A DNA stretch of 64,000 bases, from NCBI GenBank assembly GCA_016871995.1, contig VHBL01000003.1:18004-82003 (forward strand), written 5' to 3'. The position numbers and the translations under genes were made by a program. The notes under the pieces are model-generated. The model was not told where the DNA came from, searched no databases, and saw only the letters and a program-made list of their open reading frames with translations. The DNA comes from Nitrososphaerota archaeon (lineage in GTDB: Archaea; Thermoproteota; Nitrososphaeria; Nitrososphaerales; UBA57). Numbering within the stretch: the stretch's first letter is position 1; every line of letters starts with the position of its first letter. Positions 3,053 to 32,175 of this stretch are shown here, piece by piece.

Positions 3053-3087
3053 AGGCAGGTGTGCCGAATACTGATGGAACTGAGCCC

Positions 3088-3780: not shown

Positions 3781-3825
3781 TTCGGGAAGAAAAGGTATTT
3801 GGTCTGGCCGGGAGCACGCCCATCC

Positions 3826-4306: not shown

Positions 4307-4360
4307 GTTTCTATGCGAAATTACAATCTGGTCATAAGGCGTGCGTTTCTTACCTTAGCC

Positions 4361-4807
4361 ATGCAAAAAACCATAACTAAAGACATCATCGACACCGCGG
4401 CGGACGCGGGGTCGTTCAAGACGCTGGTTGAGGCCTTGAAGGCAGCCAACCTCGTAGAGACACTGAAGGGGAGAGGCCCGTTCACCGTCTTCGCGCCGAC
4501 TGACGAGGCATTCGCGAAGCTTCCGAAGGGAACGGTCGAGGGGCTCCTCAAAGACATACCGAAGCTGACGGCGATCCTGACCTATCATGTTCTGCAGAAC
4601 AGGGTCTCAGCGAAGGAGGTTCTCGCCATGACCTCGGGAGGCAAGACTCCAGCGGTCGAGACGGTACAAGGGAGCACGGTTACCCTCCGGTCGAGGGGAA
4701 TACTCTCAAAGATCGTGTACGTGAACGACGCGAAAGTCGTGAAACTTGATGTGGAGGCCAGCAACGGCATCATTCACGTCATAGACAATGTGATCCTGCC
4801 TCCTTAA
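4361..4807 (+). CDS. Fasciclin (FAS1) domain protein
   Basis: [20 protein letters not shown] and [13 protein letters not shown] are classic FAS1 motifs. ATG at 4361 is chosen inside ORF 4313..4807. Confidence 0.85.
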
Positions 4808-4824
4808 GGCAGGGGCCTTTTTTT
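4806..4824 (+). terminator. Stem-loop plus T-run after the fasciclin gene
   Basis: aaggc-aggg-gcctt is followed by ttttttt. Confidence 0.5.
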
Positions 4825-4964
4825 CTTGGTGATGTTGCTTGGGACATACCGTCCCACGGGTCAAGAGCTCTTCTTTTTCTGGTCGGTGGCAGGAGACCTG
4901 GAGCCGGGGTGGAGGTGCTCTGAATTATTTCTCGCTGGAAGGAATGCCAGACAGCAAGGATGGC

Positions 4965-6011
4965 ATGCATCTTATGAAGGCGCTAATCGCGGGCGTAGTC
5001 GCAAGTGTCGCCTTTGCGTCTGCATTTTCTCCTTTCGCCCTCGGCCATGCACCGCTAGGTGCGGGAGACAACGAGGCCCTTGGCGACGCCACCCTGATTC
5101 CCAACGCTGAGAAGTCATGGGCAGTCTATGCAGAGCTTCACGAAGCAGGGGAGGCCCAGTACTACAAGTTCGACGTGACCTCGGGCCAGAGGCTCTATCT
5201 GATGCTCTATGCCTCCCCTGGCGATGCAGACGCCGGTTTCCTTCCACACATGGCCTTGATGGCGCCGGGAATCGACGATGAAGGTTCGCTACCCAAATAT
5301 GTCATTCTGCCGGAAGGCTACGGGTACAGGACTGTTCCAAGCAAGCGGGCCGAGAAGCCGAGCTACGAGGCCTTCGCGCCGGGCAGCTTCTACTCCCTCT
5401 CCGAGTTGCGCTTCGAGGCGGGGCAGGGCGGGACGTATTATGTGGTCGTGTTCGAAGAGAAAATGGGAGGTCGCTACGGGCTGGCCGTAGGCGAGCAGGA
5501 ATCATTTACGATTGAGGAATACCTACTCATTCCGTTCAGCACGCTGAATGTCTACCTTTGGTCGGGGCAGAGCCCAATACAAGTCATCGCCCCGATGGCC
5601 GCGGTAGTTGCAATAGGGATTGTGACGCTCTATCTAGCTCAAGTAAGGACAGCTGTCACCCGTTCTGCGGGATCCGCGCTTGCATATGTCGCAGGCCTGA
5701 TATTCGTGGGGAGCGCGGCCGTGAAGATCTACGTTATGCTCGTCGCCCTCAGCTGGACCGGATTGGTAGGCGATGCCATGCTAACCGTGACATTCGTCTT
5801 GGCGCCGCTCGGGATAGGAGCGTATGCCATGAAGTACAGCCTCGGCGGCAGACATCGGAGCCAGAGGGTTAAGATGGTCATCTTCGCTCTCCTTGGGTTG
5901 ATATCGTGGGGAGGTTTCCTCGTCGGTCCGGCCATAGCCGTCGCTGCCGCCATAACCCCGAGTTCGGGCGGCCAGCAGCGGACCTCACTGCATCGAGAGC
6001 AGTCAGGCTGA
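4965..6011 (+). CDS. Secreted/membrane protein: signal peptide, beta-sandwich-like extracellular domain, C-terminal multi-TM region
   Basis: MHLMKALIAGVVASVAFASA looks like a signal peptide. The C-terminal half is hydrophobic with several predicted TM helices. ATG 4965 is chosen inside ORF 4839..6011. Confidence 0.55.
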   Translation: MHLMKALIAGVVASVAFASAFSPFALGHAPLGAGDNEALGDATLIPNAEKSWAVYAELHEAGEAQYYKFDVTSGQRLYLMLYASPGDADAGFLPHMALMAPGIDDEGSLPKYVILPEGYGYRTVPSKRAEKPSYEAFAPGSFYSLSELRFEAGQGGTYYVVVFEEKMGGRYGLAVGEQESFTIEEYLLIPFSTLNVYLWSGQSPIQVIAPMAAVVAIGIVTLYLAQVRTAVTRSAGSALAYVAGLIFVGSAAVKIYVMLVALSWTGLVGDAMLTVTFVLAPLGIGAYAMKYSLGGRHRSQRVKMVIFALLGLISWGGFLVGPAIAVAAAITPSSGGQQRTSLHREQSG

Positions 6012-6052
6012 ATGCTCGGTGAAAGGAAGATGTTGCGGTCGCTGACATAAGC

Positions 6053-7342
6053 ATGAAAGGAATGACGACTATTCTGGTCACGGGGGCAAACGGCTTCGTA
6101 GGTCGGAGGCTAGTCACAAAGCTGCTCTCGGACGGCAAGTACAAGGTAAGGTGCCTGATCAGGCATCCTGACGTCGGTGCTGAGCTTGGAGATGTCGAAA
6201 GGGTCGTGGGGAACGCGAACGACTACGAGAGTCTCATGCGTGCTCTGACCGGCATCGATGTGGCATTCTACCTGATTCATTCTATGGAGGGCTCATCATC
6301 AAATTGGGAGCGGTTCGAAGAACGAGACCGAACGATGGCGCGGAACTTCGCGAAAGCCTCGACGAGCTGCGGGGTCAAGAGGATCATCTATCTCGGTGGC
6401 CTTGCATCAGGAGACGAATCGGCTCTCTCGAGGCATATGAGGAGCCGGCGGGAAGTGGGAGAGATCCTTCGGACTTCAGCCGCCGCCGTGACTATCTTTC
6501 GCGCGGCGGTGATATTGGGGGGAGGAAGCGCTTCATTCGAGATGATGTCCCAGCTTGTCGAAAGGCTGCCGTTCATGGTACTCCCGAGGTGGGTAACGAG
6601 CAAACTCCAGCCAATCGCGATAGAGGACGTCGTGACCTATCTAGCGGAGTCGGTAGGAAACGAGCTGACATCCGGTAGGGATTTTGACATCGGCGGTCCA
6701 GACATTTTAACATACCGTCAGATGATGGAGCGCTACGCGAGCAGGACCCACAAGAGGTTCCGCCCACTGATGCTTCCGTTCCTGACGCTCAACCTCTCAT
6801 CCTACTGGGTCGACCTGGTCACGGACGTCAACGCGTCACTTGCAAGGCCGTTGGTGGAGAGCCTCAGCAAGGACGCGGTGGTAGCAGATGATTCGATAAA
6901 GCGCGTAATGCCCTTCAGGCTCGCATCCTACGAGGAATCAATAGACGCCGCCCTGCGCGAAAGGAAGCCGAGGGAGAACTCCAGAAAGTCGAGGGACATC
7001 ACTCCGCTCTTGCTCGTCCTGGCCGCCTTGGGCTTGACGACGCTCGTAGCCGGTTCGCTTCCTGAACTGCTCGGTTCACTGTGGACCGGGCTGGTATTGC
7101 TTTGGCTCGTCGGCATTGGATATTCGCTCTTCTTCTTGCGTTTCGGAGCCCGGATGGGAGCACTTTCGGCTGGAGTCGTCGCCTGGCTCGCGCTAGCTTT
7201 CTGGATGCTCGACGCGGCGGTGGCGGTTCAGATGGCCGTTTCAGAATCAGGTTCGGCCATCGCGAGGGACATCGTCGGAATCGTCCTGGCAGCGGCAACT
7301 GTGCTTCTGTCCCACTTTAGCTTTCATGAGAGAAGGGAGTGA
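6053..7342 (+). CDS. NAD(P)-binding atypical SDR / NmrA-like protein with C-terminal transmembrane extension
   Basis: ILVTGANGFVGRRL is a Rossmann motif. The last 110 aa or so are hydrophobic helices. Confidence 0.75.
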   Translation: MKGMTTILVTGANGFVGRRLVTKLLSDGKYKVRCLIRHPDVGAELGDVERVVGNANDYESLMRALTGIDVAFYLIHSMEGSSSNWERFEERDRTMARNFAKASTSCGVKRIIYLGGLASGDESALSRHMRSRREVGEILRTSAAAVTIFRAAVILGGGSASFEMMSQLVERLPFMVLPRWVTSKLQPIAIEDVVTYLAESVGNELTSGRDFDIGGPDILTYRQMMERYASRTHKRFRPLMLPFLTLNLSSYWVDLVTDVNASLARPLVESLSKDAVVADDSIKRVMPFRLASYEESIDAALRERKPRENSRKSRDITPLLLVLAALGLTTLVAGSLPELLGSLWTGLVLLWLVGIGYSLFFLRFGARMGALSAGVVAWLALAFWMLDAAVAVQMAVSESGSAIARDIVGIVLAAATVLLSHFSFHERRE

Positions 7343-7780
7343 GGTCTTGCCATGGGCGGGTTGCCGGGGTTCGGTCAGGGTGCGAAATCCTGTATCTGTC
7401 GAGCACAGAGTTGTTGACTGATCGGAAGAATAGTTGGCTACTGCAAACCTCGTCCCGACGTCTGAAAGGGCACCTGTTATAGCCGTCTGGGAGATTCAAG
7501 ATGGCCATTAAAACGGAGCGAAGATTCCCACGAAGGCAATATAGGGGAGCATCGTCTTGGCAACGATGCTGAGGATGATGTAATATCTCTTGACGTACAG
7601 ATAATCCCTCCGGCGGCCGACTCCCCCGTCTTGCAGTACCGTGTTCACAGCGAATTTGTTGAAGAGGACCAAGTAATCGATAAAGTCCTCGAGGGGTTAG
7701 TTCCAAACTGAGAGGTCAATTCTCAAGGCTTTAGGAATGTCTGAAGGATAAAAAAATAAGTTTACATTTGTCTAAACTTA

Positions 7781-7797
7781 ATTCATAATAACCTTTC
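7781..7797 (+). repeat. Right copy of the 17-bp direct repeat; adjacent 8-bp inverted repeat taagttta/taaactta (7757-7780)
   Basis: Identical to 1299-1315 and lies about 20 nt upstream of the IMPase-family ATG. Confidence 0.8.
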
Positions 7798-7816
7798 CTA
7801 CTGCACTGGAGGGAGA

Positions 7817-8629
7817 ATGTCAGAATACAGAAGCACTATTGAAAAAGCATTCAGGAAACTCTATGCAGAGTTTTCAAGTGTCAGAAGCGATTCTAAAATT
7901 GCCAGTATTGTTGGAAGGGGTGCATCTGGAGACATAACGCATGTAATAGACGCCATGGCTGAAAAGATACTCATCGAATCCTTCAGAAAAGAAATGCCTG
8001 ATTGTACAATAGTTTCCGAAGAAATCGGCATCGTCAAAGGAAAGAACGATGCTCCAATTGTACTGATGGATCCAATAGATGGTAGCACCAACGCCGTTAG
8101 GGGCCTTCCCGTATTCTGCGCTACCGCAGGAATTCTTGAAGATAGAAGTTTCGGTAGCATGGAGGCTTCTGGCACAATCGACCTTGTCACCGGCGAAGTT
8201 ATTGTCGGAGATGAAGATGGTACGTATGTAAATGGAACAAAGGCAACTCTTAGCAAAGTTTCCAGACTGCAGGATGCCATAGTTTCGTACGAAGTCAAGG
8301 TCAGAGTCGAGAGACCGAAAAAGATGATCAGCAAGATGTACGAGCTCATCACCAAGACAAAGTATCCCCGGGTTCTTGGCTCTGCAGCCTTGGAGATTGC
8401 TTATGTTGCAATAGGGAGGATGGATGCATATGTCGCACCGGGGAACCAGCTCAGAAGCTACGACTGCCTTCCATCGATATTCTTGGTAAAGTCTGCAGGC
8501 GGCTTCGTTGAAGGGATTGGCCAAAACACTGATTCCGTAGATGTCATGTCAAGGGAGAGAGTTTCTTTTGTCGTTGCAGGAAACAGGACTCTCGGGAAGA
8601 TTCTCGCTAAAGAGTTTTCATCGCTATAG
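7817..8629 (+). CDS. suhB: Inositol monophosphatase / FBPase family protein
   Basis: 270 aa with the metal-binding motif LMDPIDGSTN and a family-typical length. Confidence 0.8.
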   Translation: MSEYRSTIEKAFRKLYAEFSSVRSDSKIASIVGRGASGDITHVIDAMAEKILIESFRKEMPDCTIVSEEIGIVKGKNDAPIVLMDPIDGSTNAVRGLPVFCATAGILEDRSFGSMEASGTIDLVTGEVIVGDEDGTYVNGTKATLSKVSRLQDAIVSYEVKVRVERPKKMISKMYELITKTKYPRVLGSAALEIAYVAIGRMDAYVAPGNQLRSYDCLPSIFLVKSAGGFVEGIGQNTDSVDVMSRERVSFVVAGNRTLGKILAKEFSSL

Positions 8630-9824: not shown

Positions 9825-10511
9825 CTACAAATCTACCATCGGATGCTTGTTTGCCAGCTTGATGACCTTGATGAATGCGTAGCCGTGTTCCTCTATTTTG
9901 TTAGTGAATGAAGTTCCGTCCGTCTTCTGCATGGAATATTTCAGGAAACTCTCTGGAGCTGCATCCAGCCTGACGAAGAAGAATAGCGATGCTTCTTCAT
10001 AGTCATCAATTCTTGCAAATGCACCTGCAACCCATTTTTTGTTCGTCTCGAACGCGTATAGCGGTATGGGAGGCTCCTCGAATATCATTTTGTACGAGCT
10101 GATCTTTGCAAGGCTTGGGAGGTCTGAAACTTCCATCGAGAGAAACTTGTCCTTGATTTCTTGCCCAGAATAAAGTGCTTTCTCAAAAGGTGCTGGCATC
10201 TTCTTGATGGCTATGATCGGGGCATATACGAAGGTCGGGTTATTGGCAGAATCTGTCAGGAGAGCTTCTTCAGTGCCGTAAAGGTTTCTGTATCCAAGAT
10301 GGGCTTTTCTTTCCTTGCTCTTTGTGTAATAGAATATGGGCCTGCCCATGAAGAGGTCAAATTGTACTGATAAGACGATCTCTCTTTCTGATTCTATCGC
10401 AAAGACTGGTAATGGCGCTCTCTCTATTGCACAAGCAAGCCTAGCAAGGTCTTTGATGCCTGCAAGCTCCACAAAGCACGGAGGCTTGGTCTCTTTATCT
10501 GGCTTTGACAC
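9825..10511 (-). CDS. Hypothetical protein, co-directional with and abutting pyrF
   Basis: 228-aa ORF with a 2-nt gap to pyrF. No motif recognised. Confidence 0.5.
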   Translation of the reverse strand: MSKPDKETKPPCFVELAGIKDLARLACAIERAPLPVFAIESEREIVLSVQFDLFMGRPIFYYTKSKERKAHLGYRNLYGTEEALLTDSANNPTFVYAPIIAIKKMPAPFEKALYSGQEIKDKFLSMEVSDLPSLAKISSYKMIFEEPPIPLYAFETNKKWVAGAFARIDDYEEASLFFFVRLDAAPESFLKYSMQKTDGTSFTNKIEEHGYAFIKVIKLANKHPMVDL

Positions 10512-10622
10512 GAGCTAAGTTCTCTTACTGCTCGTTAAATAAGTTTGGGAATACAGCAGTTTGTTATAAAATAGAAAAGTTGAAGGTTCAGAAAAGTGGC
10601 ATAGAGTTAACTATGTGATAAA

Positions 10623-12122
10623 TTGCTCGGGGAAAGAATAATGATCCCAGCACAAAATCAGAAGATGGATCGCTCGGCATGGATGACGCTTTCCGTCCTA
10701 AGTTGCTTGGGGCTGGTAACTTTGTACGGCGAAACGATGGTGCTGCCAGCGATACCTGATTTTATTAGTGACTTCAATATTACATACAATACATCGTCTT
10801 GGATACTCACTGCGTTCCTGATAGCAGGAGCAGTCATGACTCCTATTGCTGGCAAGCTGTCAGACATCTACGGCAAGAAGAGAGTCTTGCTTACAGTGTT
10901 GGCCATCTATTCTGGAGGGTTATTGATAGCAGGGTTTGCTAACAGCATAGAGATCATGATCGCTGCAAGGGTTGCGCAAGGTGTAGGTTTCTCCATGTTT
11001 CCAATAGCCTTCGGAATCGTCAGGGAAGTTCTTCCTATACAGAAACTTGCAATGGGCCAGACGATCTTCGGCTCAACATTTTCTGGCGGGGCTGTAGTAG
11101 GTCTTCTCGTAGGAGGAATCATAATTCAGAACTATGGATGGCACTTTACTTTCTTCTCAGTCTTTCCCGTTGCCGTAATAATTGGGCTTTTGATCCTTAA
11201 ACTCGTTCGCACTAGTCCGCCAGTCTTTAACATGCCGGGAAAAGTAGAGGGGAACCCGAACAAGTCGCTCGATCTTAAAGGAACAGTTGCATTGGCTTCT
11301 ACAGTCACATTCTTTCTAGCAGGGATTTCCGTTTTGGAGGGCAGCATCTCTGAATCGGTTATAGGTCTTGACATAATCGGACTATTTGCAGTCGCAGTGA
11401 TTTCGTTGGGGCTGTTCATGGTCATTGAAAAGAAAACGTCCGTACCTTTGATTGATTTTAAGTTGATAACTCACAGAATGCTCCTTCCTACCACTATAAT
11501 ACTGATGCTCGTAGGTCTCTGCACCTTCATGGTCTACCAGACGATACCGATTCTGATAAGGAGCCCGAAGCCATTTGGGTTTGGAGGTGATGCGATCGTC
11601 ACTGCCGGCGTGCAGCTTCCATTCATGATAGTTCTCCTAATTGGAACAATAGGGTCAGGTCTTGTACTAAACAGACTTGGCAATCTAAGATTAACGGTAG
11701 TAGGAACTTCCTTGAGCATGATAGGATTCTTCAGCCTGCTTGTATTCCATCAATCAGAATTGATGGTTACCATAACTCTGTCCATAATAGCTGCAGGATT
11801 GTCACTCGCCTTTACTGGCGGCTTCAACATAGTGCTGGTATCTGCACCAGTACAATCAACTGGGATAGCTCTTGGCATGACCCTGCTTCTTAACTTGATA
11901 GGGCAGTCCGTTGGACCAACGGTAGCAGCAATCTTTCAGCAAACCTATCAAGGGAGCATAGAGGGAGTTGGCAGATTTCCTACAGCCGAGGCGTATAACA
12001 TGATATTCCTTACAGCTGCTATAATTTCACTTACATCAGTTGTCCTTGCATTGACATTAAGCAGAAGGAAAGTTGCTCCAATTCCTGCTGGTAGTGGTCA
12101 CACAATGCCTACAAGTTCCTAG
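10623..12122 (+). CDS. MFS transporter (14-TM DHA2-like)
   Basis: Roughly 14 hydrophobic segments and the MFS loop motif GKLSDIYGKKRV. Confidence 0.85.
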   Translation: MLGERIMIPAQNQKMDRSAWMTLSVLSCLGLVTLYGETMVLPAIPDFISDFNITYNTSSWILTAFLIAGAVMTPIAGKLSDIYGKKRVLLTVLAIYSGGLLIAGFANSIEIMIAARVAQGVGFSMFPIAFGIVREVLPIQKLAMGQTIFGSTFSGGAVVGLLVGGIIIQNYGWHFTFFSVFPVAVIIGLLILKLVRTSPPVFNMPGKVEGNPNKSLDLKGTVALASTVTFFLAGISVLEGSISESVIGLDIIGLFAVAVISLGLFMVIEKKTSVPLIDFKLITHRMLLPTTIILMLVGLCTFMVYQTIPILIRSPKPFGFGGDAIVTAGVQLPFMIVLLIGTIGSGLVLNRLGNLRLTVVGTSLSMIGFFSLLVFHQSELMVTITLSIIAAGLSLAFTGGFNIVLVSAPVQSTGIALGMTLLLNLIGQSVGPTVAAIFQQTYQGSIEGVGRFPTAEAYNMIFLTAAIISLTSVVLALTLSRRKVAPIPAGSGHTMPTSS

Positions 12123-18821: not shown

Positions 18822-19778
18822 TTAGCTGAGCCCAAATTCAGCAAGTTTCTTGTTGTTCTTCTCAATGCCTTTTACTTCTGCTTCAGTAGGGAAGAAGTAT
18901 TTTTCGTTCCACCCTTCAGGAAGTTTCTCAGGCGACTTACCCGTTAAAGCAAGTACGCCCCATATCTTTCCGATAGATGCTTGACCCTCTTTCGATGCAA
19001 GGAAGTCAAGGAAATGCCTAGCGGAGGGGCTATCCTCTGCATTTTTCATCAACCCTGCGGTTGTAAACGTGTACAGCCTAGGAAGTTCCTTTACCCTGAG
19101 CTGCTGCAAATGTGCCCCTTCCTCTTTAAGGCGATAGAAAGCCAGCGAATAGGCTGCCAGAGCGATAGACTTCTCACCAGCCTCTAAAGCCTGAAGCAAG
19201 TGATCTATGCAGTCGTATGTCTGCGGTTTGATTTTACCAACAATATTCAAAACCTCTTTCCATCGCCGTTCTCCAAGAATCCTCTTTAGCGCACAAAGAT
19301 AGTATGCAGTAAGGTTTCCAGCAGAGGACGCTAGGACAGCTTGACTTCCAATCTTGCTTCTAAACCCGTCTGCAAATTCCTTTATGCTGTTAGGAACGTT
19401 CCCATTAAGCCGTTCGCTGTATACAGGAAACATCGAAGTTATCCCAATGGCCATCCATGTCTTCGAACTGTCTTGGGCAAATTGAGGAAAAGAGTTTGAA
19501 GGAGAGTATCTCGCTAGAAGCCCTCTATGCTTCATCTGGAGCAGAAGATAATGCGGAGCAATTACAATATCAGCGGTAGGCAGACCAGCCTTGATCTCTC
19601 CTTCAACTCTTTTCAAGACGGGAAATGGATGATCATCCAAATAAGCCGGAAACTCTTCAAGAGTGTACTTTCTGCGGAATGTCCACAGGAGATCGCTTAC
19701 TCCCCTTCTTACTCCCATGGACGCATAAATAGTTGTACGCCTTCCCTTTGTCTTGACCATCTGCATGCGCAGAAACAT
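18822..19778 (-). CDS. Periplasmic-binding-protein fold (family 1, FbpA/AfuA-like) protein without signal peptide
   Basis: The SBP-like pattern is TTIYASMG....ADIVIAP....GLLARYSP. There is no N-terminal hydrophobic segment. Confidence 0.65.
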   Translation of the reverse strand: MFLRMQMVKTKGRRTTIYASMGVRRGVSDLLWTFRRKYTLEEFPAYLDDHPFPVLKRVEGEIKAGLPTADIVIAPHYLLLQMKHRGLLARYSPSNSFPQFAQDSSKTWMAIGITSMFPVYSERLNGNVPNSIKEFADGFRSKIGSQAVLASSAGNLTAYYLCALKRILGERRWKEVLNIVGKIKPQTYDCIDHLLQALEAGEKSIALAAYSLAFYRLKEEGAHLQQLRVKELPRLYTFTTAGLMKNAEDSPSARHFLDFLASKEGQASIGKIWGVLALTGKSPEKLPEGWNEKYFFPTEAEVKGIEKNNKKLAEFGLS

Positions 19779-19850
19779 TCGGCTAAATCATCATGTCGTA
19801 AGAATAATTCTAACCTAACCCTTATACTGAATTCATAAAAATTTTCTTCC

Positions 19851-20771
19851 ATGCACACGATAAAGCACGGCTACTATGCACCCTATTTTTACTGGATGTT
19901 TCCTTTAATCGTAGCTAATGAAGAAGCAATCTTCCCTAAAGTTGGCGTTGATTTCAAGGTTACAGACATTGTAGCAGGAGGACAGCCTGAAAACAAGGCA
20001 GATTGGTACCTCGAAGCATTTCAAAAGGGAGTACGCGACTTTTACTTCTGCTGCGCTTGGCAGGGAGTTTATAGTACTAACACGACTAGGAAGGGAAGAA
20101 TAATAGCAGCCGCTCCATCAACTCTTCTCAAAACCTTTGCAATCTACACGAAACCTGATTCTGACGTGAAGAGCGTCTACGATCTTGGGAAGAACAGGTA
20201 TGCCGTTGCGGTTAACAAGTTTGCAGACGCGCATTACGTTACGCTCAAGAACATGAGGCAGTTTCTGCCTGATTCTCAGATACAGCTTGCACACCTTGGC
20301 GGAGTAGAACAGTGTTTCAGAGCCCTCTTGGATGGCAAGGTCAAGGCAGCTACTCTTGCAGGACCTTATGCTGACTTTGCGCAGTATATAGGGATGAGGA
20401 GAGTATTGGGCCTGTCGAGAGACGAGCCTACATTCATAGTTATGGATGAAACATTCGACAAGGAAACAGTTTCAGTATTTTTGAAAGCGGTCAATATGGC
20501 GATCGCAAGGATAAGGGAAAATCCAGAAAGATACAGGGATAGATACTACAAAGAATTCGAAATGGTGGTGAAGGCTTTCCTCCAAGAACTCGCGCCGAAT
20601 CTCAAAGGATTCAGGGAGAGGATGGAGATTCCGGTCTGGGCAGACTTGAGGCAAGTCACTAGGCAAGAGTTCGAAACTATAAGGAACTTTATGGAGGAAA
20701 CAGGCCTGATAACTGGGAAGACTACTTATGAGGAGCTCGTCAACCCAGAATCTCCCATACTGGCAAAGTAG
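19851..20771 (+). CDS. NMT1/THI5/SsuA-like SBP-fold protein without signal peptide
   Basis: 306 aa with no signal peptide. Paralogous in architecture to 20841..21782. Confidence 0.6.
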   Translation: MHTIKHGYYAPYFYWMFPLIVANEEAIFPKVGVDFKVTDIVAGGQPENKADWYLEAFQKGVRDFYFCCAWQGVYSTNTTRKGRIIAAAPSTLLKTFAIYTKPDSDVKSVYDLGKNRYAVAVNKFADAHYVTLKNMRQFLPDSQIQLAHLGGVEQCFRALLDGKVKAATLAGPYADFAQYIGMRRVLGLSRDEPTFIVMDETFDKETVSVFLKAVNMAIARIRENPERYRDRYYKEFEMVVKAFLQELAPNLKGFRERMEIPVWADLRQVTRQEFETIRNFMEETGLITGKTTYEELVNPESPILAK

Positions 20772-20840
20772 GTCTCATGGAGACGCGTTAGAATTATTCT
20801 ACCACATTGCTCAAATTTGTTATAATTAGCGGGAAGAACC

Positions 20841-21782
20841 ATGTCAAAAACATTCAGGTTGAAGGTAAAGAACTCCTACATCCCTTGGTCATTCCTTGAC
20901 ATAATTGCCAAAGACGATGGATTATTCGCAAAGAGAGACATTTCAATAGACTTCTTCAGTGTAGGCAAGGCCGAGTCAGAACCATCGGACAAGATAAGGT
21001 GGTATTCAGACTTGGTGAAGACGGACAAGCTTGATGCCTATTCTGTATGCGCTTGGGGGGCGATAGACAGGCTCGCTGGTGCAGAGACACAGAAGGAGAA
21101 GATACTTGCAGCCTCCACATCTTCGTCATACGCCTTTTCAATAATAGTTCAGCCGGGTTTAGGAATAAAGACGGCAAAGGATCTAGCGGAGATACCAATA
21201 GCGGTGAACATGAAGACTGGTTCCCATTATTGCGTACTTAGCGACCTTGAAAGGGCACTACCTTACGACAGCATCAAAGTTGTTCACGGAGGGGAACCAC
21301 AGAGCAGGCTAAAAGGACTGATTGATGGAAAGTTCCAAGCAGTTGCATTGATAAGCCCATATACAGAACTTGCGATAAAACTTGGATATCCTAAAGTTGC
21401 AGAGACCAAAACTGTCGATGTTCTAGCATTCGTTGCCAGAGACGACATACCGATGGACACTATGGTAAAGTATCTTGATGCTCTAAACGAGGCTTCAAAG
21501 CAGCTCAGGGCCGATCCCGAGAAGTACAGGAATCTGTACATTAGGACATTCAGGGAAACCTTCGCTGGATATCCTGAAGATCTCAGGGCCAGAGTGAACA
21601 AGGTTATTGACCAGATAGGCTCGACGGTGCCGATAACCACATGGGGAGAACTAGTTTCTTATCCAAAGGAGTCCTTCAACCAGCTTAGCACATGGATGAG
21701 CAAGCACAATTTGCTACAGTCAAAGGTGGACTATGAGAGTCTTGTGCTGGAGCAGCCCTTAGCAAAGGCAAAGGGCCATTAG
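20841..21782 (+). CDS. NMT1/THI5/SsuA-like SBP-fold protein without signal peptide
   Basis: 313 aa, same pattern as the upstream paralog (GKFQAVALISPYTELA versus GKVKAATLAGPYADFA). Confidence 0.6.
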   Translation: MSKTFRLKVKNSYIPWSFLDIIAKDDGLFAKRDISIDFFSVGKAESEPSDKIRWYSDLVKTDKLDAYSVCAWGAIDRLAGAETQKEKILAASTSSSYAFSIIVQPGLGIKTAKDLAEIPIAVNMKTGSHYCVLSDLERALPYDSIKVVHGGEPQSRLKGLIDGKFQAVALISPYTELAIKLGYPKVAETKTVDVLAFVARDDIPMDTMVKYLDALNEASKQLRADPEKYRNLYIRTFRETFAGYPEDLRARVNKVIDQIGSTVPITTWGELVSYPKESFNQLSTWMSKHNLLQSKVDYESLVLEQPLAKAKGH

Positions 21783-22627
21783 CGAGGAATAGCGTCGTAA
21801 AACTGTTCGGCTCCAGAATACTTGTTGTAAAGGAGCCGAAAGTTTCTTTCTACTATCATTTTTAATTTCCAATCTTCACTCCCTTCCAGTATCGGGATAT
21901 CCTTAGTACCCTCCTTTACCCGCTTACGCACTTCTGTATCGAACTTTCTCAAGTAACTTGCAAACGTCCCAACGTGCTCTTTTGAGGAGATAGTCCCATG
22001 CCCGGGGACTATCTGGTCAATTCGCATCCCCTTGATTTCTTCTAGCCTGTTAAGCCATGCAGGCAAGTTAGCATCTTCAATGTTCGGATGGTAATTTACT
22101 GACAGCACATCCCCAGAAATCAGAACTTTGTCATCAGGCAATAGTACCATAGTATCTCCATCTGTATGTGCCCCTTTTTTGGGGTGAATTATCTTGAGAG
22201 TCTTTTCTCCAAAATATTCTACGAAACCTTCTTTGTACGTTCGCTGAGGAGGAGCTATTGAGATTCCATCCAGATCTTCTTTGAGCTTTCTGCCTAACCT
22301 TCTATATGCTTTAATTCTTTCTTCGCCTCTCCCAATAATTCTCGTCTTGCAATTCTCATGAGCAAGTATTGTGGCTTCAAAGACGGAGTTTCCGAAGACA
22401 TGGTCTGAGTGATCGTGCGTATTTATCACAAGTTTTACAGGTTTATAGGTTCTCTTCTTGATCTCCTTGAGAAGCGAATAAGATATCTTGTTCGTGAAAC
22501 CTGTATCAATCAGAATTACCCCATCATGAGTGACTATGAAGGTCTGGTTTGCACCCCAGCCGTCGTGGATGCTGTCGCTCTTTCCGAGATTTACAAAAAC
22601 GTTCTCTGCAACTTGCTTAACCGGCAT
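21779..22627 (-). CDS. Metallo-beta-lactamase-fold hydrolase
   Basis: HxHxDH motif (NTHDHSDHVFGN) and a downstream PGHG. Confidence 0.85.
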   Translation of the reverse strand: MPVKQVAENVFVNLGKSDSIHDGWGANQTFIVTHDGVILIDTGFTNKISYSLLKEIKKRTYKPVKLVINTHDHSDHVFGNSVFEATILAHENCKTRIIGRGEERIKAYRRLGRKLKEDLDGISIAPPQRTYKEGFVEYFGEKTLKIIHPKKGAHTDGDTMVLLPDDKVLISGDVLSVNYHPNIEDANLPAWLNRLEEIKGMRIDQIVPGHGTISSKEHVGTFASYLRKFDTEVRKRVKEGTKDIPILEGSEDWKLKMIVERNFRLLYNKYSGAEQFYDAIPR

Positions 22628-22630
22628 GTT

Positions 22631-23458
22631 CTATGCTTCGCTGATTTCAGTTCGCGCCTCCCAGAGTACTGGGAAGAACCTTTTTGTCAGTGATGTTTGA
22701 AGATAAGAAACTCCAGATATGTTGAAGGCATAAGGTCCCACAACGTCCTTGACAATTTCAGAACCTGTTCCCTGCTTCCTGCCTATTACGCGCTCCACCA
22801 TTGCTATATGATGGGTTCTCCAGAGCCAGAAATTCTTATCATATTCCATTAACACTTCAGCAAGCTCTTCAACTTCTGGATACTTTTTGCCAGAAAAGAG
22901 CCTTACGAGGGCCTTAAGCTCCTTCTTGTAGAGTTTTCTCTTAGAGTCAGCGTTAATATCGAATTTATAGCGTTCAAGAACTTCTCTAAAACCATCCCAC
23001 AATGAAGGGGACTCGAACCGTTTCAGCAGTTGCTCATAATCAGATTCGTCATCTTCATGCATCTTTAGGAATTTCTCATCCTTTTGACCAGAAACGAATT
23101 CCAATTCTCTGAACTGCAAAGATTGAAAGCCACTAGCAGGTCTGAGCAGAGTACGGAACTTCAAGAAGTCTTTTGGCCTTATCGTTTCCAATACTGTGAT
23201 TTGCTGAATAAGGACCTTCTGAACTTCCACGACCCTTCGTATCAGCCTAGTAGCTTCAGGTACATCTCCTGCCAGCATGTGCGAAATAGCAGATTCGAGT
23301 TCATTGAGCATCAGTTTGAACCATAATTCGTATGTCTGGTGGGCAATTATGAACAGAACTTCGTCTTGCTGCCTCGGCTTCGAAATTAGCTTCTGCAGAC
23401 CAAGCAGGTGATCTATATGCAGATATCCTTTGTAGGAGAGAGGCTTCTTTGCTGACAA
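22631..23458 (-). CDS. kynA: Tryptophan 2,3-dioxygenase
   Basis: YKGYLHIDHLLGLQ, LFIIAHQTYELWFKLMLNELE and WRTHHIAMVERVIG match the TDO signature regions. Confidence 0.8.
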   Translation of the reverse strand: MSAKKPLSYKGYLHIDHLLGLQKLISKPRQQDEVLFIIAHQTYELWFKLMLNELESAISHMLAGDVPEATRLIRRVVEVQKVLIQQITVLETIRPKDFLKFRTLLRPASGFQSLQFRELEFVSGQKDEKFLKMHEDDESDYEQLLKRFESPSLWDGFREVLERYKFDINADSKRKLYKKELKALVRLFSGKKYPEVEELAEVLMEYDKNFWLWRTHHIAMVERVIGRKQGTGSEIVKDVVGPYAFNISGVSYLQTSLTKRFFPVLWEARTEISEA

Positions 23459-23469
23459 TTTTTGCTCTT

Positions 23470-24837
23470 TTACTTGTTGACCCAGGGGTAAAGCTCTTTT
23501 AATCCATTAAGAGCCTTCTTTATTGCCTTAACATCGGCATCATTCTTCTCCATATGTCCCTCTTTATATTCCCTGTAAGCCTCTAAATCTAGCAGTCCAT
23601 GTCCGCAAAGGTTGAACAGAATGACTTTCTTTTCACCTGTCTGCTTGCACTTCTTTGCTTCGTCGATAACGCCTTTTATCGCGTGAGCAGTTTCTGGAGC
23701 GGCTACTATGCCTTCAGTACTTGCAAAGAAAGCCGCAGCGTCAAATATCTCCGTCTGGTTGTATGCTACGACATCGATCTGCTTTTCATGGTACAATAAG
23801 CTCATTGATGGTGCAGCCCCGTGTACTCTTAACCCTCCAGTATGGATTGGTGGAGGTACAAAATTATGACCTATGGTGTACATTCTGAAGAGTGGGCTAG
23901 TTCTCATGACGTCCGAATGATCATACAGATATTCGCCTTTAGTAAACCTTGGTGCTGCGGTCGATTCTACCCCGAGGAACCGAACATCCTTTGGAGCTCT
24001 CTTGCTGATCTTGTCATAGTAATAGGGCCAGAATATGCCAGAGAAGTTGCTCCCTCCTCCCACACAGCCTACTACAATATCGGGGTAGTCGCCGTAAGGT
24101 TCAAACTGTTTCTGCGCTTCCAATCCGATCAAAGTTTGACTTGCAAGAACGAAGTTCATTATGCTCCCTACAGCATTTCTTGCCTTTTCATCACGCATGA
24201 CATCCTCTATAGCCTCGCTTTTGGCTATGCTCATAGATCCTGGGCCGTCAGGATCGTCTTGCAGAACATTCTTTCCAACAGAAGTGTTTGTGCTAGGGCT
24301 AGCGAAGATTTGCGCACCCCATGCCTCCGCTAGGTCTTTGCGGTAGGGCTTCTGATCGAAAGCCGCTCTTGCCATATAGATAGTGCATTTTACTCCGAAT
24401 AACTTGCAGCCAAATGCAAGTGCCGTGCCCCACTGTCCAGCAGTAGTGCTGGTAACTAATCTTTCAATCCCTTCCTTCGCTGCGTAATATGCCTGAGCAA
24501 CTGCAGCATTTGCCTTATGCGATCCTGGGGGACTTACGGATTCATTTTTGTAATAGATTCTTGCAGGCGTGTTTAGAGCTCTTTCAAGCCTTCTCGCTCT
24601 AACAAATGGCGTAGGCCTCCAAATCGAGTATATCTGCCTCAGCTCTTCGGGGATCTGGATGAACCGCTCGTTCGAGTATTCGTGTCTTGCAAGCTCTCTA
24701 ATGAAAAGCCTATGCAGGATGGCTTTGTCTGCGACCTGCCTTGTCTTTGGATCAATTACAGGCGGAAGTTTCTTGGGTAAATCGGGAACTATGTTGTACC
24801 ACTGTGCTGGTATTGACTCTAATGCAGTAGCTAGCAT
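23470..24837 (-). CDS. trpB: Tryptophan synthase beta-like protein, TrpB2 type
   Basis: 455 aa (the long TrpB2 form). The PLP-lysine context is PPGSHKANAAVAQAYYA, with GGGSNFSG. Confidence 0.85.
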   Translation of the reverse strand: MLATALESIPAQWYNIVPDLPKKLPPVIDPKTRQVADKAILHRLFIRELARHEYSNERFIQIPEELRQIYSIWRPTPFVRARRLERALNTPARIYYKNESVSPPGSHKANAAVAQAYYAAKEGIERLVTSTTAGQWGTALAFGCKLFGVKCTIYMARAAFDQKPYRKDLAEAWGAQIFASPSTNTSVGKNVLQDDPDGPGSMSIAKSEAIEDVMRDEKARNAVGSIMNFVLASQTLIGLEAQKQFEPYGDYPDIVVGCVGGGSNFSGIFWPYYYDKISKRAPKDVRFLGVESTAAPRFTKGEYLYDHSDVMRTSPLFRMYTIGHNFVPPPIHTGGLRVHGAAPSMSLLYHEKQIDVVAYNQTEIFDAAAFFASTEGIVAAPETAHAIKGVIDEAKKCKQTGEKKVILFNLCGHGLLDLEAYREYKEGHMEKNDADVKAIKKALNGLKELYPWVNK

Positions 24838-24895: not shown

Positions 24896-26935
24896 TTACT
24901 GTTGAAGTATCATTCGCAGCTTTTCAGGATCAGATGTTGGAAGATCGCAGGTAAAGTTCTTGCAGACATATGCGGTAGTTTCTCCCTCCAACTGGATCCT
25001 GTCTTTCAGCAAAGGTATCATTTCAGAATAATCCTTCCCTGCAGGCTGAAGAGCTACTATGATATCTGGCCTGTAAGTTTCCGATATTATCCGAAGCATC
25101 CTTTTTGTAATTTCTTCACCCAAACTACCAGATATAGCAACTTCTTTTGGCGGATTCAAAAGATAATCAAGTGCTATTAGCCAGTTAGTCAATCCTGTAG
25201 GATAGTTTTCCATCTGTGTACTTACCGATCTTAGAGCTTTCTCTGTAGATTTTGCAAACTTTGTATCTCCCGTATATGCGAACAGTTTCAGCATGATCTG
25301 AGCCGCCGCAGACCCCCCAGAAGGGAGAGCCGAATCGAAGGAACTCTTGGGTCTTGCAATTAACTGCTCATGGTCGTCTGATGTGTCGTAATATCCTCCA
25401 TCGTTCTTGTCTTCAAAATGATCGATTATCATGTTCGCCATCTTTTTTGCTTCTGCTAGCCATCTTGGGTTAAATGTGCTCTGATACAGTTCGATTAACC
25501 CATCAGCCAAGAAAGCATAATCTTCCAAATATCCGTTGATCTTTACAGTTCCATCCTTCCATACATGCAATAACCTTCCCTCTCTCTCCATGTTGCCCAG
25601 AATGAATTCTGCATTATTTTCTGCTGCATTTAGGTAATCTTCCCTGCCCAGAACTCTTGCAGCCTCACTCATCCCCGATAGCATCAACCCATTCCACGAT
25701 GCAAGGACCTTGTCGTCCCTTCCAGGTTTTATGCGCTTGTTCCTTTCAGCAAGAAGTTTCTTTCTGCACTCTGTCATTGTCTCTTCGAGTTTCTCTACAG
25801 AACTCTTCAGCATTGATGCTACTCCGGAAGGCTCTGTTTGAATGTTCAGGATGTTCTTCCCTTCAAAGTTACCCTCCGCTGTAACTCCGTAGTATGCGCA
25901 GAAACTTTCAGCATCAGTTCCAAGAATTCTCTCGATCTCTTGTTTTGTCCAGACGTAGAACTTGCCCTCTTCCCCTTCGCTGTCTGCATCCTGAGTAGAA
26001 TAGAACCCTCCATTCGCATCTGTCATCTCCCTTAACACATAGTCAATAGTTTCTTCTACGATCTTTCTGCTGATGGGGTTCTTGTTTATCTGATAATCGT
26101 GAAGGTAGACTCTGGACAGAAGGGCATTGTCGTAAAGCATCTTTTCGAAATGGGGAACTAGCCATCTGCTGTCAACCGAATAGCGGTGAAAACCTCCCCC
26201 AAGATGATCGTAAACTCCTCCTTGGGCCATTTTCAATAGTGTAAATTCGACCATCTTGTTGGCTTGGGCAAAGCCCTGCCTTCTTCCTATTCTGATCAGC
26301 AACTCCAACGCCGTCGGTTGGGGAAATTTAGGTGCCCTTCCAAAACCACCATTTATTCTATCAAAACTGCTGTCTAACTGTAAAAATGCGACTTCGATTG
26401 GAAGGTTATTCAGTTCTGCTTTTTCAACAGCTATCTTTTCGTTGAGCCTTTTGTGAAGCTGCTCTGCATCTTTCATAACTTCTTGCTTTCTTGCCTTGTA
26501 AGCTTCGCTTATTGCAGCTAATACTCTTTTGAACGATGGCAGTCCATGGCCCTCATCTGGAGGGAAATACGTACCTCCGAAGAAAGGTTTCCCATCCGGA
26601 GTAAGAAAAACTGTCATAGGCCAGCCACCAGAACCTGTCAGAGCCTGAACGGCTTCCATGTAGACCGTATCCAGATCAGGTCTTTCCTCTCTGTCTACCT
26701 TTATACTGACAAAATTGTCATTCATTATCTTTGCACTCTCTTCATCTTCAAAAGATTCCTTCTCCATGACGTGACACCAATGGCAAGCAGAATACCCTAT
26801 GCTGAGCAGAATCGGCTTATCCTCTTTTCTGGCCCTGGCAAAGGCCTCCTCACCCCAAGGATACCAGTCTACAGGGTTATGCGCATGCTGAAGCAAATAC
26901 GGCGAGGTTTCTTTTGCAAGACGATTAGCATGCAA
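24896..26935 (-). CDS. Thioredoxin-domain (DUF255) / YyaL-type protein with six-hairpin glycosidase-like C-terminal region
   Basis: The N-terminus is [29 protein letters not shown]...[12 protein letters not shown]. 679 aa. Confidence 0.85.
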
Positions 26936-29698: not shown

Positions 29699-29844
29699 AA
29701 GACGTCTTCTGGAGAACCATTATATAATTTTTCATAATGGTCTTCCAACCTATAATCAATTTCCGTTGCGTGAAAGTTCAGCAACTGACGAATCTTGTCC
29801 CAATTATCGGCACGGTTATATGGTCGAAGGATACATGCGCGATA

Positions 29845-32175
29845 ATGAAACAACAGATTACTCCGTTGAGTCTGATTGTGGCAATTCTTCTGCTGGTTTC
29901 ATCGCTGGCAACAATGTCACCACTAACACCCACACCGGTTTCTGTTGCGTACGGACAGGCCTCCGGAGTGGCAGGTGCCAACTGGGAATATGTCAACTCC
30001 CAGCAAGTTGGTGGGAGCTTTAACCCCCAGACCCAGATTACAAAGGACAACATCCAGTATTTGGAGACAAAATGGATCTACCCCTATGTCAGGCCCCCTG
30101 TACCTCAGACGATAGGAAATGGCTATGGTTCTGGTGCAGCCCCCCTAGTGGTCGATGGTGTAGTGTACATTGCAATGAATGATAGACGAATTTTGGCACT
30201 TGATGCTACGACTGGAAGGCTTATGTGGAACAACACATACGGAACCTCCTTCGATTCAGGCGCGCAATTAGCTAAGTATCCATGGCTATCAAGAGCAGGA
30301 GCTCACGTTCACTCAATGAACTTTTACAGAGAGAAAAACTGGCTCATTACGAGTAGCATAGGTTCATGTGAATCATACGCCGTGGATGCAAAAACAGGAA
30401 AGACCGCATGGGTTCTAACAACTGAGCAGATATGTGGGACAACGGCTGAGTTTGGAGAGCCAGCCAAGGGGATTGTGGGTTCCCTTGGGAATCAAGGTTT
30501 CATGTCTGGAGCGGGCTCCCACCCTCCTAAATTACTTGGAAACATCCTGTTCTACCCTGTTCCTGGTGGGAGTGGTTCAGGAGGAAGATCGTTTGTTACA
30601 GCATTTGACATGAGCGATCCTGCAAACCCCAAGAGACTATACAGAACATTTACCCAGCCTCCAGCTCAAGGAGATCCTGAATGGGCGATCAAACAATGTA
30701 CAGAAGCAAATGGTAATGGCTGGTATTTTGAATATCCAAGGTACCTTGAAGGGATAAACCATCCAGCGAGGGACAGAGAACCAACGTACCTAGCAACAAA
30801 ATGCACTGACGTGAGTCCAGATGTTGTAAGGAACGATGGGATGGATCTAGTACCAGGATCTCCAACCTATGGAAAGATGCACACAGCAACCAATCATGGC
30901 TCGGCCGTATGGGGCAACTATCCACTCGACGTTGAAACTGGGATAGTGATTCTTGGATGGGGTGATCAAGGGCCTTATCCTAACCTGACGCATAGATATG
31001 GGCCAGGTCTACATGGTAGCGGCTTCACTGCGCATGACGTTAGAACGGGTAAGCTCGTATGGTGGTTCAACGCGATTCCGCATGACCTCTGGGACTTTGA
31101 CTGTGCTTGGGGGGGCATCCTAGGTAAAACATCTGCAGGACAGAAGATCTACATAAAAGGTTGCAAGAGTGGACAGGTCTGGGGCCTTGATGCAACAACG
31201 GGCAAACCTGTCTGGGTATTCGACGCTCCGACGATTATCAGAAATACGGACATAAACTATGGAGTTGACAAGAACAACAACCCGAGGAGCCCTGATGCCT
31301 GTTGCAGGATGACGAAGGAACATATGGGTAAACCATGGCCTAACTATCCCAGCAAGGAGAAGATGTTCACAATCTGCTACACGCATTGCCTTGAATCCGA
31401 TATAGCTTCTGATGGAAAGTATGTATACGCAGCTACGCATAGCGAGCCGAGGGTCTTAACCGTAACAAATGTGAGAGGCTTTGGCAACCAGGGTTCGGCC
31501 GAAAGACTTTACAATGTAGCCGAGAAGAAATATGCAGCTGTAGCCGGGAGATACACGGAAGCGGACATAAGGGGGCTGACATACACGGTAATCTACGCAT
31601 TTGACATAAGTACAGGAAAGGAGGCGTGGAGAACTAGAATCGATGGTGTACCATTCAGAGGAGGTCTAACTGTGTCTGGCGGAGTTGTCATGGCATATGC
31701 CACTGATGGAAATCTAAAGTTCTTTGATGCAGGAACAGGCAAAATGATTTCCGAAAGATTCTTCGGGGTACCTGTAAATGTTCAACCTGTGATAGGTGCG
31801 ACAAAGGAAGGAAAGATGCGTGTCTTTATGCATGTCGGAGGTGGTGGAGGGATTACCCTCAATAATGCATTACCTATCGATGGTACGCTCGTAGCATTCG
31901 GCCTGCCTGATAAACTACCTGAACCTGTAGTCAAAGAAATCATAAAGGAAGTTCCAAAGGAGGTAGTCAAAGAAGTGGTCAAAGAAGTGGTCAAAGAAGT
32001 GGTCAAAGAAGTGGTCAAAGAAGTACCTAAGGAGGTCATAAAGGAAGTACCTAAGGAGGTAGTCAGGGAAGTGACAGTTGAAACAATTAGTCCAGCATCA
32101 TACGCTGTTATCGGTATAGGGATCGTGCTAATAGTCATATCAGGGATACTCTTCAGCAGAAGGAAGAAAGCGTAA
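29845..32175 (+). CDS. PQQ-dependent-dehydrogenase-like 8-bladed beta-propeller, signal peptide, KEVx repeat stalk and C-terminal TM anchor
   Basis: Repeated blade motifs are ALDATTGRLMW, AVDAKTGKTAW, AHDVRTGKLVW, GLDATTGKPVW and AFDISTGKEAW. ATG 29845 precedes the signal-like LSLIVAILLLVSSLA. Confidence 0.8.
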   Translation: MKQQITPLSLIVAILLLVSSLATMSPLTPTPVSVAYGQASGVAGANWEYVNSQQVGGSFNPQTQITKDNIQYLETKWIYPYVRPPVPQTIGNGYGSGAAPLVVDGVVYIAMNDRRILALDATTGRLMWNNTYGTSFDSGAQLAKYPWLSRAGAHVHSMNFYREKNWLITSSIGSCESYAVDAKTGKTAWVLTTEQICGTTAEFGEPAKGIVGSLGNQGFMSGAGSHPPKLLGNILFYPVPGGSGSGGRSFVTAFDMSDPANPKRLYRTFTQPPAQGDPEWAIKQCTEANGNGWYFEYPRYLEGINHPARDREPTYLATKCTDVSPDVVRNDGMDLVPGSPTYGKMHTATNHGSAVWGNYPLDVETGIVILGWGDQGPYPNLTHRYGPGLHGSGFTAHDVRTGKLVWWFNAIPHDLWDFDCAWGGILGKTSAGQKIYIKGCKSGQVWGLDATTGKPVWVFDAPTIIRNTDINYGVDKNNNPRSPDACCRMTKEHMGKPWPNYPSKEKMFTICYTHCLESDIASDGKYVYAATHSEPRVLTVTNVRGFGNQGSAERLYNVAEKKYAAVAGRYTEADIRGLTYTVIYAFDISTGKEAWRTRIDGVPFRGGLTVSGGVVMAYATDGNLKFFDAGTGKMISERFFGVPVNVQPVIGATKEGKMRVFMHVGGGGGITLNNALPIDGTLVAFGLPDKLPEPVVKEIIKEVPKEVVKEVVKEVVKEVVKEVVKEVPKEVIKEVPKEVVREVTVETISPASYAVIGIGIVLIVISGILFSRRKKA
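31927..32070 (+). repeat. 12-bp-period coding tandem array (12 units, 4 perfect copies of gtggtcaaagaa at 31975-32022) encoding (K-E-V-x)n
   Basis: Direct reading of the sequence. It translates to VVKEIIKEVPKEVVKEVVKEVVKEVVKEVVKEVPKEVIKEVPKEVVRE. Confidence 0.9.

Follow-up and report, generated by a model that had tools for sequence, protein, structure and literature searches.

A conserved five-gene module of uncultured Nitrososphaerales associates a tryptophan 2,3-dioxygenase homologue with a TrpB2 paralogue that has lost the catalytic glutamate

What brings a tryptophan synthase beta-type enzyme and a tryptophan 2,3-dioxygenase (TDO) together in an archaeal genome, and what do they make there? 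The question is raised by a stretch of 64,000 nucleotides (hereafter, the window) of contig VHBL01000003.1 (positions 18,004 to 82,003; assembly GCA_016871995.1), from a member of the Nitrososphaerales, in which a preliminary description, made from the sequence alone, had seen a tight operon of three minus-strand genes, coding for a long TrpB2-type tryptophan synthase beta chain, a TDO homologue and a hydrolase with the metallo-beta-lactamase (MBL) fold. The operon was proposed to channel indole and serine through Trp into kynurenine, with the MBL protein acting as a non-canonical N-formylkynurenine formamidase. The coordinates of the open reading frames (ORFs) bear out the arrangement of the three genes, with intergenic gaps of 11 and 3 nucleotides. 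The operon is not limited to these genes, however, as three strictly co-occurring partners, at positions 18822-21782, had been overlooked. We show here that the conserved unit consists of five genes, coding for TrpB2, TDO, two related proteins designated X1 and X2, and a further binding-protein-fold protein, SBP11, and that the MBL gene is an optional sixth (Table 1). The TrpB2 and TDO encoded by this unit are referred to below as the module TrpB2 and the module TDO.

In the neighbourhoods of TDO homologues sharing 53-100% identity, the genes for TrpB2, TDO, X1 and X2 (about 310 residues each) and SBP11 (about 317 residues) were always found together. The pairing of TrpB2 with TDO is genuine and evolutionarily conserved, the two genes being adjacent in all of the 16-18 loci examined; X1 adjoins X2 in every locus examined, and SBP11 is present in all the complete loci. 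Four or more arrangements of the five-gene set, differing in gene order and orientation, occur in two families of the order, which argues for a functional rather than an inherited linkage. TDO was found in 22 of 401 genomes of the order, and orthologues of X2 (at least 42% identity) in exactly the same 22. Among 61 relatives, TrpB2 is common (26 genomes) and TDO is rare (four genomes), and one genome of the same genus as the window's (G302) is without the module. The X2 family counts 56 homologues among 5.8 billion proteins, and those with a named source belong to Thaumarchaeota or Nitrososphaerales. The hosts of the module are non-ammonia-oxidising Nitrososphaerales, archaea of soils and lakes. 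The sequencing runs that carry the DNA of the window are lake-water metagenome DNA runs, homologues of the window's proteins carry the names Thaumarchaeota or Nitrososphaerales, and related loci come from metagenome-assembled genomes (MAGs) labelled palsa_, AcS and SubAcS, the last two of which we take to be acidic-soil Gagatemarchaeaceae genomes. Searches of the literature on the combination of TrpB2 with TDO and on kynurenine metabolism in Thaumarchaeota returned no description of the cluster, although the phrase query joining TDO to Thaumarchaeota was perhaps defeated by the comma in the name of the enzyme; a genomics paper on the Gagatemarchaeaceae makes no mention of tryptophan, dioxygenase or indole.

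A second, divergent and partial copy of the module lies on a short contig of another genome of the same genus (G301:C127; L007 and L010), where an X2-like gene (54% identical) and a TDO-like gene (48% identical) are convergent; this suggests that the cluster was duplicated, or acquired twice. In a long-read MAG (L045), the TrpB2, TDO and SBP11 genes are each broken into two or three ORFs, reflecting either assembly frameshifts or a decaying cluster. An apparent TDO fusion in G346 (an open frame of 566 amino acids) turned out to be a stop-free upstream extension that overlaps trpB2.

The module TrpB2 scores above the cut-offs of both NCBIfam models (619.3 bits on NF009057, cut-off 366; 570.8 bits on TIGR01415, cut-off 518.85), and its top match in the PDB is TrpB2i of S. 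solfataricus (6hul_B). In a maximum-likelihood tree, the TDO-linked TrpB2s (n = 13) are monophyletic, with a support of 100/100 and a stem of 0.88 substitutions per site. The motif TETGAGQWG, which contains the catalytic Glu (the ETGAGQ motif; StTrpB E109, equivalent to Pf E104 and Tm E105), reads T(S/N)TTAGQWG in all 13, with the Glu replaced by Ser in 12, including the protein of the window (TSTTAGQWG), and by Asn in one. Of 20 stand-alone thaumarchaeal TrpB2s, 18 have the Glu, as does the canonical TrpB1 that is encoded elsewhere in the window's genome. Two further motifs are changed in the linked proteins, HKPNTA to HKANAA, next to the Lys that binds pyridoxal phosphate (PLP), and GGLRYHG to GGLRVHG; that Lys itself (GSHK) and the GGGSN phosphate loop are intact in all of them. 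Some genomes, G346 and G301 among them, encode a normal TrpB2 in addition to the TDO-linked one, and the module TrpB2 is 66-91% conserved across lineages, a level comparable to that of the other enzymes of the module. Judged from these sequence features, the module TrpB2 is a putatively neofunctionalised TrpB2 paralogue.

The residue that has been lost coordinates the indole N-H and is reported to be essential for Trp formation (PMC12727527; see also PMC11917138). Since this indole-activating Glu is gone from all the linked copies, the formation of Trp from indole and serine by the module TrpB2, the first step of the route proposed earlier, is doubtful. In the plant TSB-like protein the same Glu is naturally an Ala (Ser or Pro in the Solanaceae), which leaves the protein inactive, its sole function being the activation of TrpA (PMC12727527), whereas E105G is among the mutations found in phenol-using tyrosine synthases engineered from TrpB (PMC13174591). 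In these TrpB-family proteins, loss of the Glu abolishes or redirects the indole reaction. The TSB-like protein, however, is a TrpB1-type paralogue of eukaryotes and the tyrosine synthases were obtained in the laboratory; the module TrpB2 shows the change as a natural one, in an archaeal protein of the TrpB2 lineage that is coupled to a dioxygenase. Stand-alone TrpB2o and TrpB2i are described as O-phosphoserine-dependent tryptophan synthases with a part in indole salvage (Busch, 2014; Hiyama, 2014; both as cited in PMC12727527). With these the module TrpB2 shares its family scores, its fold, the PLP lysine and the phosphate loop; it differs from them by the Ser or Asn in place of the ETGAGQ Glu, by the two other motif changes, and by its position in a separate, long-branched clade.

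Deviations from the motif also occur among stand-alone thaumarchaeal TrpB2s (L054, G331:C15; L052, G326:C5), one of which reads TLTGAGQWG, with Leu for Glu, and one of which is very divergent (GGGA-QWG); neither of the two genomes has a TDO. In one module locus (L043, G308:C3), the TrpB2 gene carries an in-frame TGA.

The module TDO matches Pfam Trp_dioxygenase (PF03301) with 173.4 bits (cut-off 34.9) and falls below the cut-off of the TIGR03036 equivalog model (217.6 versus 390.7 bits). When aligned to the TDO of Xanthomonas campestris (XcTDO; 2nw7), Y24, Y27, L28, F51, H55, R117, H240 and T254 are conserved and Y113 is replaced by Phe. In XcTDO, H240 is the proximal heme His and H55 the distal His, and R117 and T254 bind the carboxylate and ammonium of the substrate; the equivalents of H240, H55, R117 and T254 in the module TDO are H217, H40, R102 and T231, all conserved in the clade. 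The heme-binding residues, on which the identification as a TDO had been made to depend, are thus present in a proper alignment. The TDO motifs noted earlier were also found, and the apparent insertion after GTG is a true one, of 13 residues between GTG and SGVSYL; the canonical GTGGSSG loop is not kept. The insertion has the form GTG-x3-V-x4-GPYsF-x2-SG in all the archaeal clade members examined, and is found neither in XcTDO nor in the nearest bacterial relatives (Gemmatimonadales, 31-33% identity). By alignment, it directly follows T231, the equivalent of XcTDO Thr254, which we take to contact the substrate ammonium and to lie in a loop that closes over the bound substrate. On that alignment, the insertion is best described as a remodelled, putative substrate-closing (lid) loop.

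X1 and X2 are paralogues (27% identity). The AlphaFold2 (AF2) model of X2 has a predicted local distance difference test score (pLDDT) of 93 and matches TauA, SsuA and ThiY best in Foldseek, with THI5 and DszB also among the matches. SBP11 matches Pfam SBP_bac_11 and, by sequence, FbpA/HitA and P5PA in the PDB; its AF2 model (pLDDT 79.6) retrieves HitA, FbpA, AfuA and P5PA. The top Foldseek matches thus give both X2 and SBP11 the type-II periplasmic binding-protein fold. The sequences of X1, X2 and SBP11 open with the first beta-strand of the mature fold, with no leader peptide, export signal or lipobox ahead of it, from which it follows that they are cytoplasmic, and no ABC permease or ATPase was found near their genes in any locus examined. 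Invariant residues are numerous: X2 has many polar and aromatic ones, including an N-x2-TGSH motif of the anion-binding type, X1 has an invariant FYFCCAWQG motif, and SBP11 has invariant LEEFPxYLDDHP and DCIDHL motifs. This density of invariant polar and aromatic residues suggests that the three proteins may be enzymes or very specific binders. X1 and X2 share their fold and their dense invariant polar residues with THI5p (the hydroxymethylpyrimidine phosphate (HMP-P) synthase), with DszB (an aryl-sulfinate desulfinase) and with the SsuA, TauA and ThiY binders, and lack a leader peptide as THI5 and DszB do. They are, however, only 11-19% identical to any of these proteins, the catalytic residues of THI5 or DszB could not be mapped onto them, and the X2 family is essentially confined to the cluster described here.

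A role of X1 and X2 in thiamine (HMP) synthesis was considered and set aside: ThiC is missing from the whole of two families (f1 and f58) irrespective of the cluster, leaving no specific link. A third leaderless paralogue, X3 (Table 1), was identified in 13 of the 14 genomes that make up the window's family, the TDO-less ones included. ThiC was found in none of the 14 genomes of that family and in none of the four of f58, and ThiC-positive families such as f2 were without X3 (none of 112 genomes); X3 might be a THI5-type HMP-P synthase that replaces ThiC. In the window's genome, X3 adjoins a VOC/glyoxalase-like gene and an ornithine cyclodeaminase gene; a seeming resemblance of the X3-VOC pair to genes located close to the cluster elsewhere was not borne out by BLAST. 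On an unrelated metagenome contig (L066 and L067), the gene for a distant, leaderless, NMT1-like relative of X2 (P0313) is immediately upstream of an AIRS/ThiL-like gene, a context that may point to a function connected with thiamine in part of the wider X2-like family.

The MBL protein matches Lactamase_B with 78.5 bits and has the THDHSDH, GAHTDGD, SGDV and PGHG motifs intact. In the aligned orthologues THDHSDH, GAHTxGD, GDV and PGHG are invariant, so that the full set of metal ligands (HxHxDH and the downstream His, Asp and His) accompanies the fold that had been recognised from HxHxDH. Orthologues (44-100% identity) lie directly downstream of TDO in G000, G301, G409, G458 and G495 and at loci L026, L033 and L045; in G308, a class-I aminotransferase gene stands between TDO and MBL. 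Overall, the MBL gene is at TDO, adjacent or one gene away, in six of the seven genomes that bear an orthologue (at least 44% identity), and is not found in 16 of the 22 TDO genomes. A check of the co-occurrence of TDO with this MBL subfamily, as called for earlier, therefore gives a one-sided result: the MBL protein is nearly exclusive to TDO, and TDO mostly does without it. Five genomes with the cluster and no linked MBL have no orthologue anywhere in the genome. In G438 the MBL orthologue is present without a TDO match, and a similar MBL-only arrangement occupies a syntenic spot at locus L044. Thus, being found at TDO in most of its bearers and missing from 16 of 22 clusters, the MBL protein is tied to the pathway and does not catalyse an essential step. 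Its fold places it outside the known formamidase families (the KynB cyclase, PF04199, and the alpha/beta-hydrolase KFA), and its best family and sequence matches are SoxH-related and quinoprotein-relay MBL hydrolases (TIGR04558 and TIGR04559) and PDB 8d2z, with which it shares the HxHxDH di-metal site; its scores on the two models, 145 and 140 bits, are far under the cut-offs of 280 and 300, and the archaeal proteins are without a signal peptide, unlike an aligned bacterial relative (P0282). Of the earlier formamidase proposal, the linkage to TDO and the intact metal ligands speak for it and the dispensability of the protein against it; a role as a helper deformylase, or one of the formamidase type, is plausible.

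A KynB-type cyclase gene (PF04199) is present in the window's genome in an unrelated context (C1:736621-737082), and the possibility that MBL and KynB replace each other was examined: no pattern emerged, and five of the 11 cluster genomes checked have neither the MBL protein nor a KynB-type cyclase. The aminotransferase was also considered as a member of the module, and rejected, in that the lineages differ in the aminotransferase found beside the cluster, the genes not being orthologues (28% identity), and in that loci of the f58 type retain the gene after loss of the cluster.

The module resembles the bacterial kynurenine operon (kynA, coding for TDO; kynB, for the cyclase-type formamidase; kynU, for kynureninase) in that its TDO homologue keeps the residues for heme and Trp binding and, in some lineages, has downstream of it the gene for a metal hydrolase with the potential to deformylate the product. 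It differs in that the hydrolase has the MBL fold, is optional, and is neither a cyclase nor an alpha/beta-hydrolase, in that the module TDO is under the TIGR03036 cut-off and carries the 13-residue insertion, and in the obligatory linkage to a TrpB2 paralogue and three binding-fold genes. A kynureninase, seen earlier to be missing from the window, was not found in the window's genome as a whole (1.55 Mb, 11 contigs, 96% complete). NadA is present in that genome, and with no kynureninase found, a role of the module in NAD synthesis, one of those suggested earlier, is unlikely and was dropped.

We tentatively favour, as the best available account of the module, an undescribed pathway in which a Trp-like amino acid is made, its ring is opened and the product is deformylated where the MBL protein is present. 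The module TrpB2 would still form the PLP-aminoacrylate from serine or O-phosphoserine and, with the Glu gone, would join it not to plain indole but to another aromatic nucleophile, or to an indole-type nucleophile activated beforehand, giving a tryptophan-like beta-substituted alanine. X1, X2 and SBP11 would, as enzymes or carriers, produce the nucleophile, keep it bound or pass it on, or else act on the final product. The module TDO, with its heme ligand and the residues gripping the amino acid kept and its lid loop remodelled, would open the hetero-ring with O2 to give an N-formyl-kynurenine-like product, from which the MBL protein may take off the formyl group. We infer the substrates, the sequence of the reactions and the parts played by the three binding-fold proteins; the gene content, the strict co-occurrence, the clade-specific changes at the active sites and the accessory status of the MBL protein are observed. 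The account draws on the finding of the five genes together in several orders and orientations, at TDO identities of 53-100%, and of X2 and TDO in the same 22 of 401 genomes; on the monophyly and long stem of the linked TrpB2s, with the Glu replaced in 13 of 13 and the PLP Lys and GGGSN loop kept; on the published requirement for that Glu in Trp formation (PMC12727527) and the occurrence of E105G in phenol-using variants (PMC13174591); on the proximal and distal His, the Arg and the Thr kept in the module TDO along with a clade-wide insertion; on the leaderless and densely invariant nature of X1, X2 and SBP11, with the enzymes THI5 and DszB among the fold neighbours of X2; and on the position of MBL orthologues at TDO in six of seven bearers. 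A more specific version, possible and on the doubtful side, would see in the module nature's equivalent of the "tyrosine synthase" switch achieved in the laboratory: a Glu-less TrpB2 would couple serine or phosphoserine with another aromatic nucleophile, supplied by the THI5/DszB-like cytoplasmic proteins, and a co-evolved TDO-type enzyme would ring-open the product, to yield an undescribed archaeal metabolite or cofactor precursor.

Several points weigh against this pathway. Ordinary L-Trp remains the simplest substrate of the module TDO, all the indole contacts of XcTDO being kept in the alignment except Y113; the loss of the Glu could alternatively mean that the module TrpB2 is catalytically dead; the closest structural matches of X2 and SBP11 are transport proteins, and X1, X2 and SBP11 could be simple ligand binders or regulators; and no nucleophile-producing chemistry could be assigned to any of the three. 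A rival account is the indole-to-kynurenine route, in which TrpB2 salvages indole to L-Trp, TDO converts it to N-formylkynurenine and the MBL formamidase releases kynurenine, with indole, Trp or kynurenine as ligand of the binding-fold proteins. The NCBIfam scores of the module TrpB2, the conserved Trp-binding and heme residues of the module TDO and the tight linkage to TDO, where it occurs, of an MBL protein with intact metal ligands all accord with it, and the aminotransferase of G308 would fit a conversion of kynurenine to kynurenate. We nevertheless consider this route unlikely: the Glu reported to be essential for Trp formation (PMC12727527) is gone in all linked TrpB2s, the MBL protein is missing from most clusters and, in five of the 11 cluster genomes checked, no KynB-type cyclase stands in for it, NadA is present and kynureninase was not found, the aminotransferases of different lineages are not orthologous, and three strictly conserved genes are left with no role.

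If the module TrpB2 is instead a pseudoenzyme or regulatory subunit, it might, as the plant TSB-like protein does, activate a partner (a THI5-like protein or TrpA), with the module TDO acting on ordinary cellular tryptophan. The replacement of the same Glu in the inactive TSB-like protein, which only activates TrpA (PMC12727527), the long stem branch of the linked TrpB2s, and the TrpA-binding TrpB2i (6hul) as the best structural relative of the module TrpB2 are in keeping with such a role. However, strict conservation of the PLP lysine, the GGGSN loop and the majority of the active-site motifs throughout the clade argues for retained PLP chemistry, the cluster has no TrpA gene, and the module TrpB2 is conserved on a par with the other enzymes of the module, so that we regard a pseudoenzyme as improbable. 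Least credible, and in our view very improbable indeed, is a mobile accessory island or a conserved synteny without a shared pathway, in which the binding-fold genes and MBL would be functionally unrelated to TrpB2 and TDO. The patchy distribution of the module, its absence from a genome of the same genus and the ability of the MBL gene to persist alone could be read in this way, but not the perfect co-occurrence of X2 and TDO (22 of 22), the linkage kept through at least four gene orders or orientations in two families, or the near confinement of the X2 family to the cluster.

Table 1. Genes of the module and other genes referred to in the text
Gene	Coordinates	Strand	Description
TrpB2 (module)	23470..24837	-	455 aa; TDO-linked paralogue of TrpB2-type PLP beta-replacement enzyme
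TDO (module)	22631..23458	-	TTG start; 275 aa; heme tryptophan 2,3-dioxygenase homologue, distinct archaeal subclade
MBL	21779..22627	-	282 aa; leaderless HxHxDH metallo-beta-lactamase-fold hydrolase; optional accessory, candidate deformylase
X2	20841..21782	+	leaderless SsuA/TauA/ThiY/THI5/DszB-fold protein; most conserved module member
X1	19851..20771	+	X2 paralogue; leaderless NMT1/THI5-like fold
SBP11	18822..19778	-	leaderless FbpA/HitA/AfuA/P5PA-fold protein
DUF255/YyaL-like	24896..26935	-	thioredoxin-domain protein; neighbour 58 nt upstream of module TrpB2; outside conserved module
X3	G000:C1:274607-275473 (L068:6593-7552)	-	third leaderless NMT1/THI5-like paralogue; about 29% identical to X1 and X2
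Class-I/II aminotransferase	L043 (G308:C3) 9843-10928	same as TDO and MBL	361 aa; lies between TDO and MBL

In the neighbourhood comparison, the DUF255/YyaL-like neighbour of the module was found only in the window's own genus (loci L020 and L021). A few kilobases from the module, at positions 29737-32175 of the window, lies a gene for a large beta-propeller protein of the PQQ-dehydrogenase type (812 residues); genes of this type are described as typical of heterotrophic Thaumarchaeota (PMC10640624). Positions 2001-8000 have a G+C content of 53-61%, against about 44% in the remainder of the window, and may be a compositionally foreign segment; Rfam and tRNA searches of this segment gave no Rfam match and no tRNA.

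TrpB and TDO are among the best-studied enzymes of tryptophan metabolism, and in this module the two make up a dedicated pair that evolves together, in heterotrophic Thaumarchaeota that are abundant but uncultured; both have remodelled active-site elements and both are tied to three cytoplasmic binding-fold proteins. Should the module TrpB2 prove to use a new nucleophile, nature would have set a precedent for a chemistry that has until now been obtained only through directed evolution, and biocatalysis would gain a scaffold ready for use; should it prove to be a pseudoenzyme, the plant TSB-like protein would have a parallel among prokaryotes. In both cases, the module represents a testable new pathway and the first functional context for a leaderless THI5/SsuA-like family.

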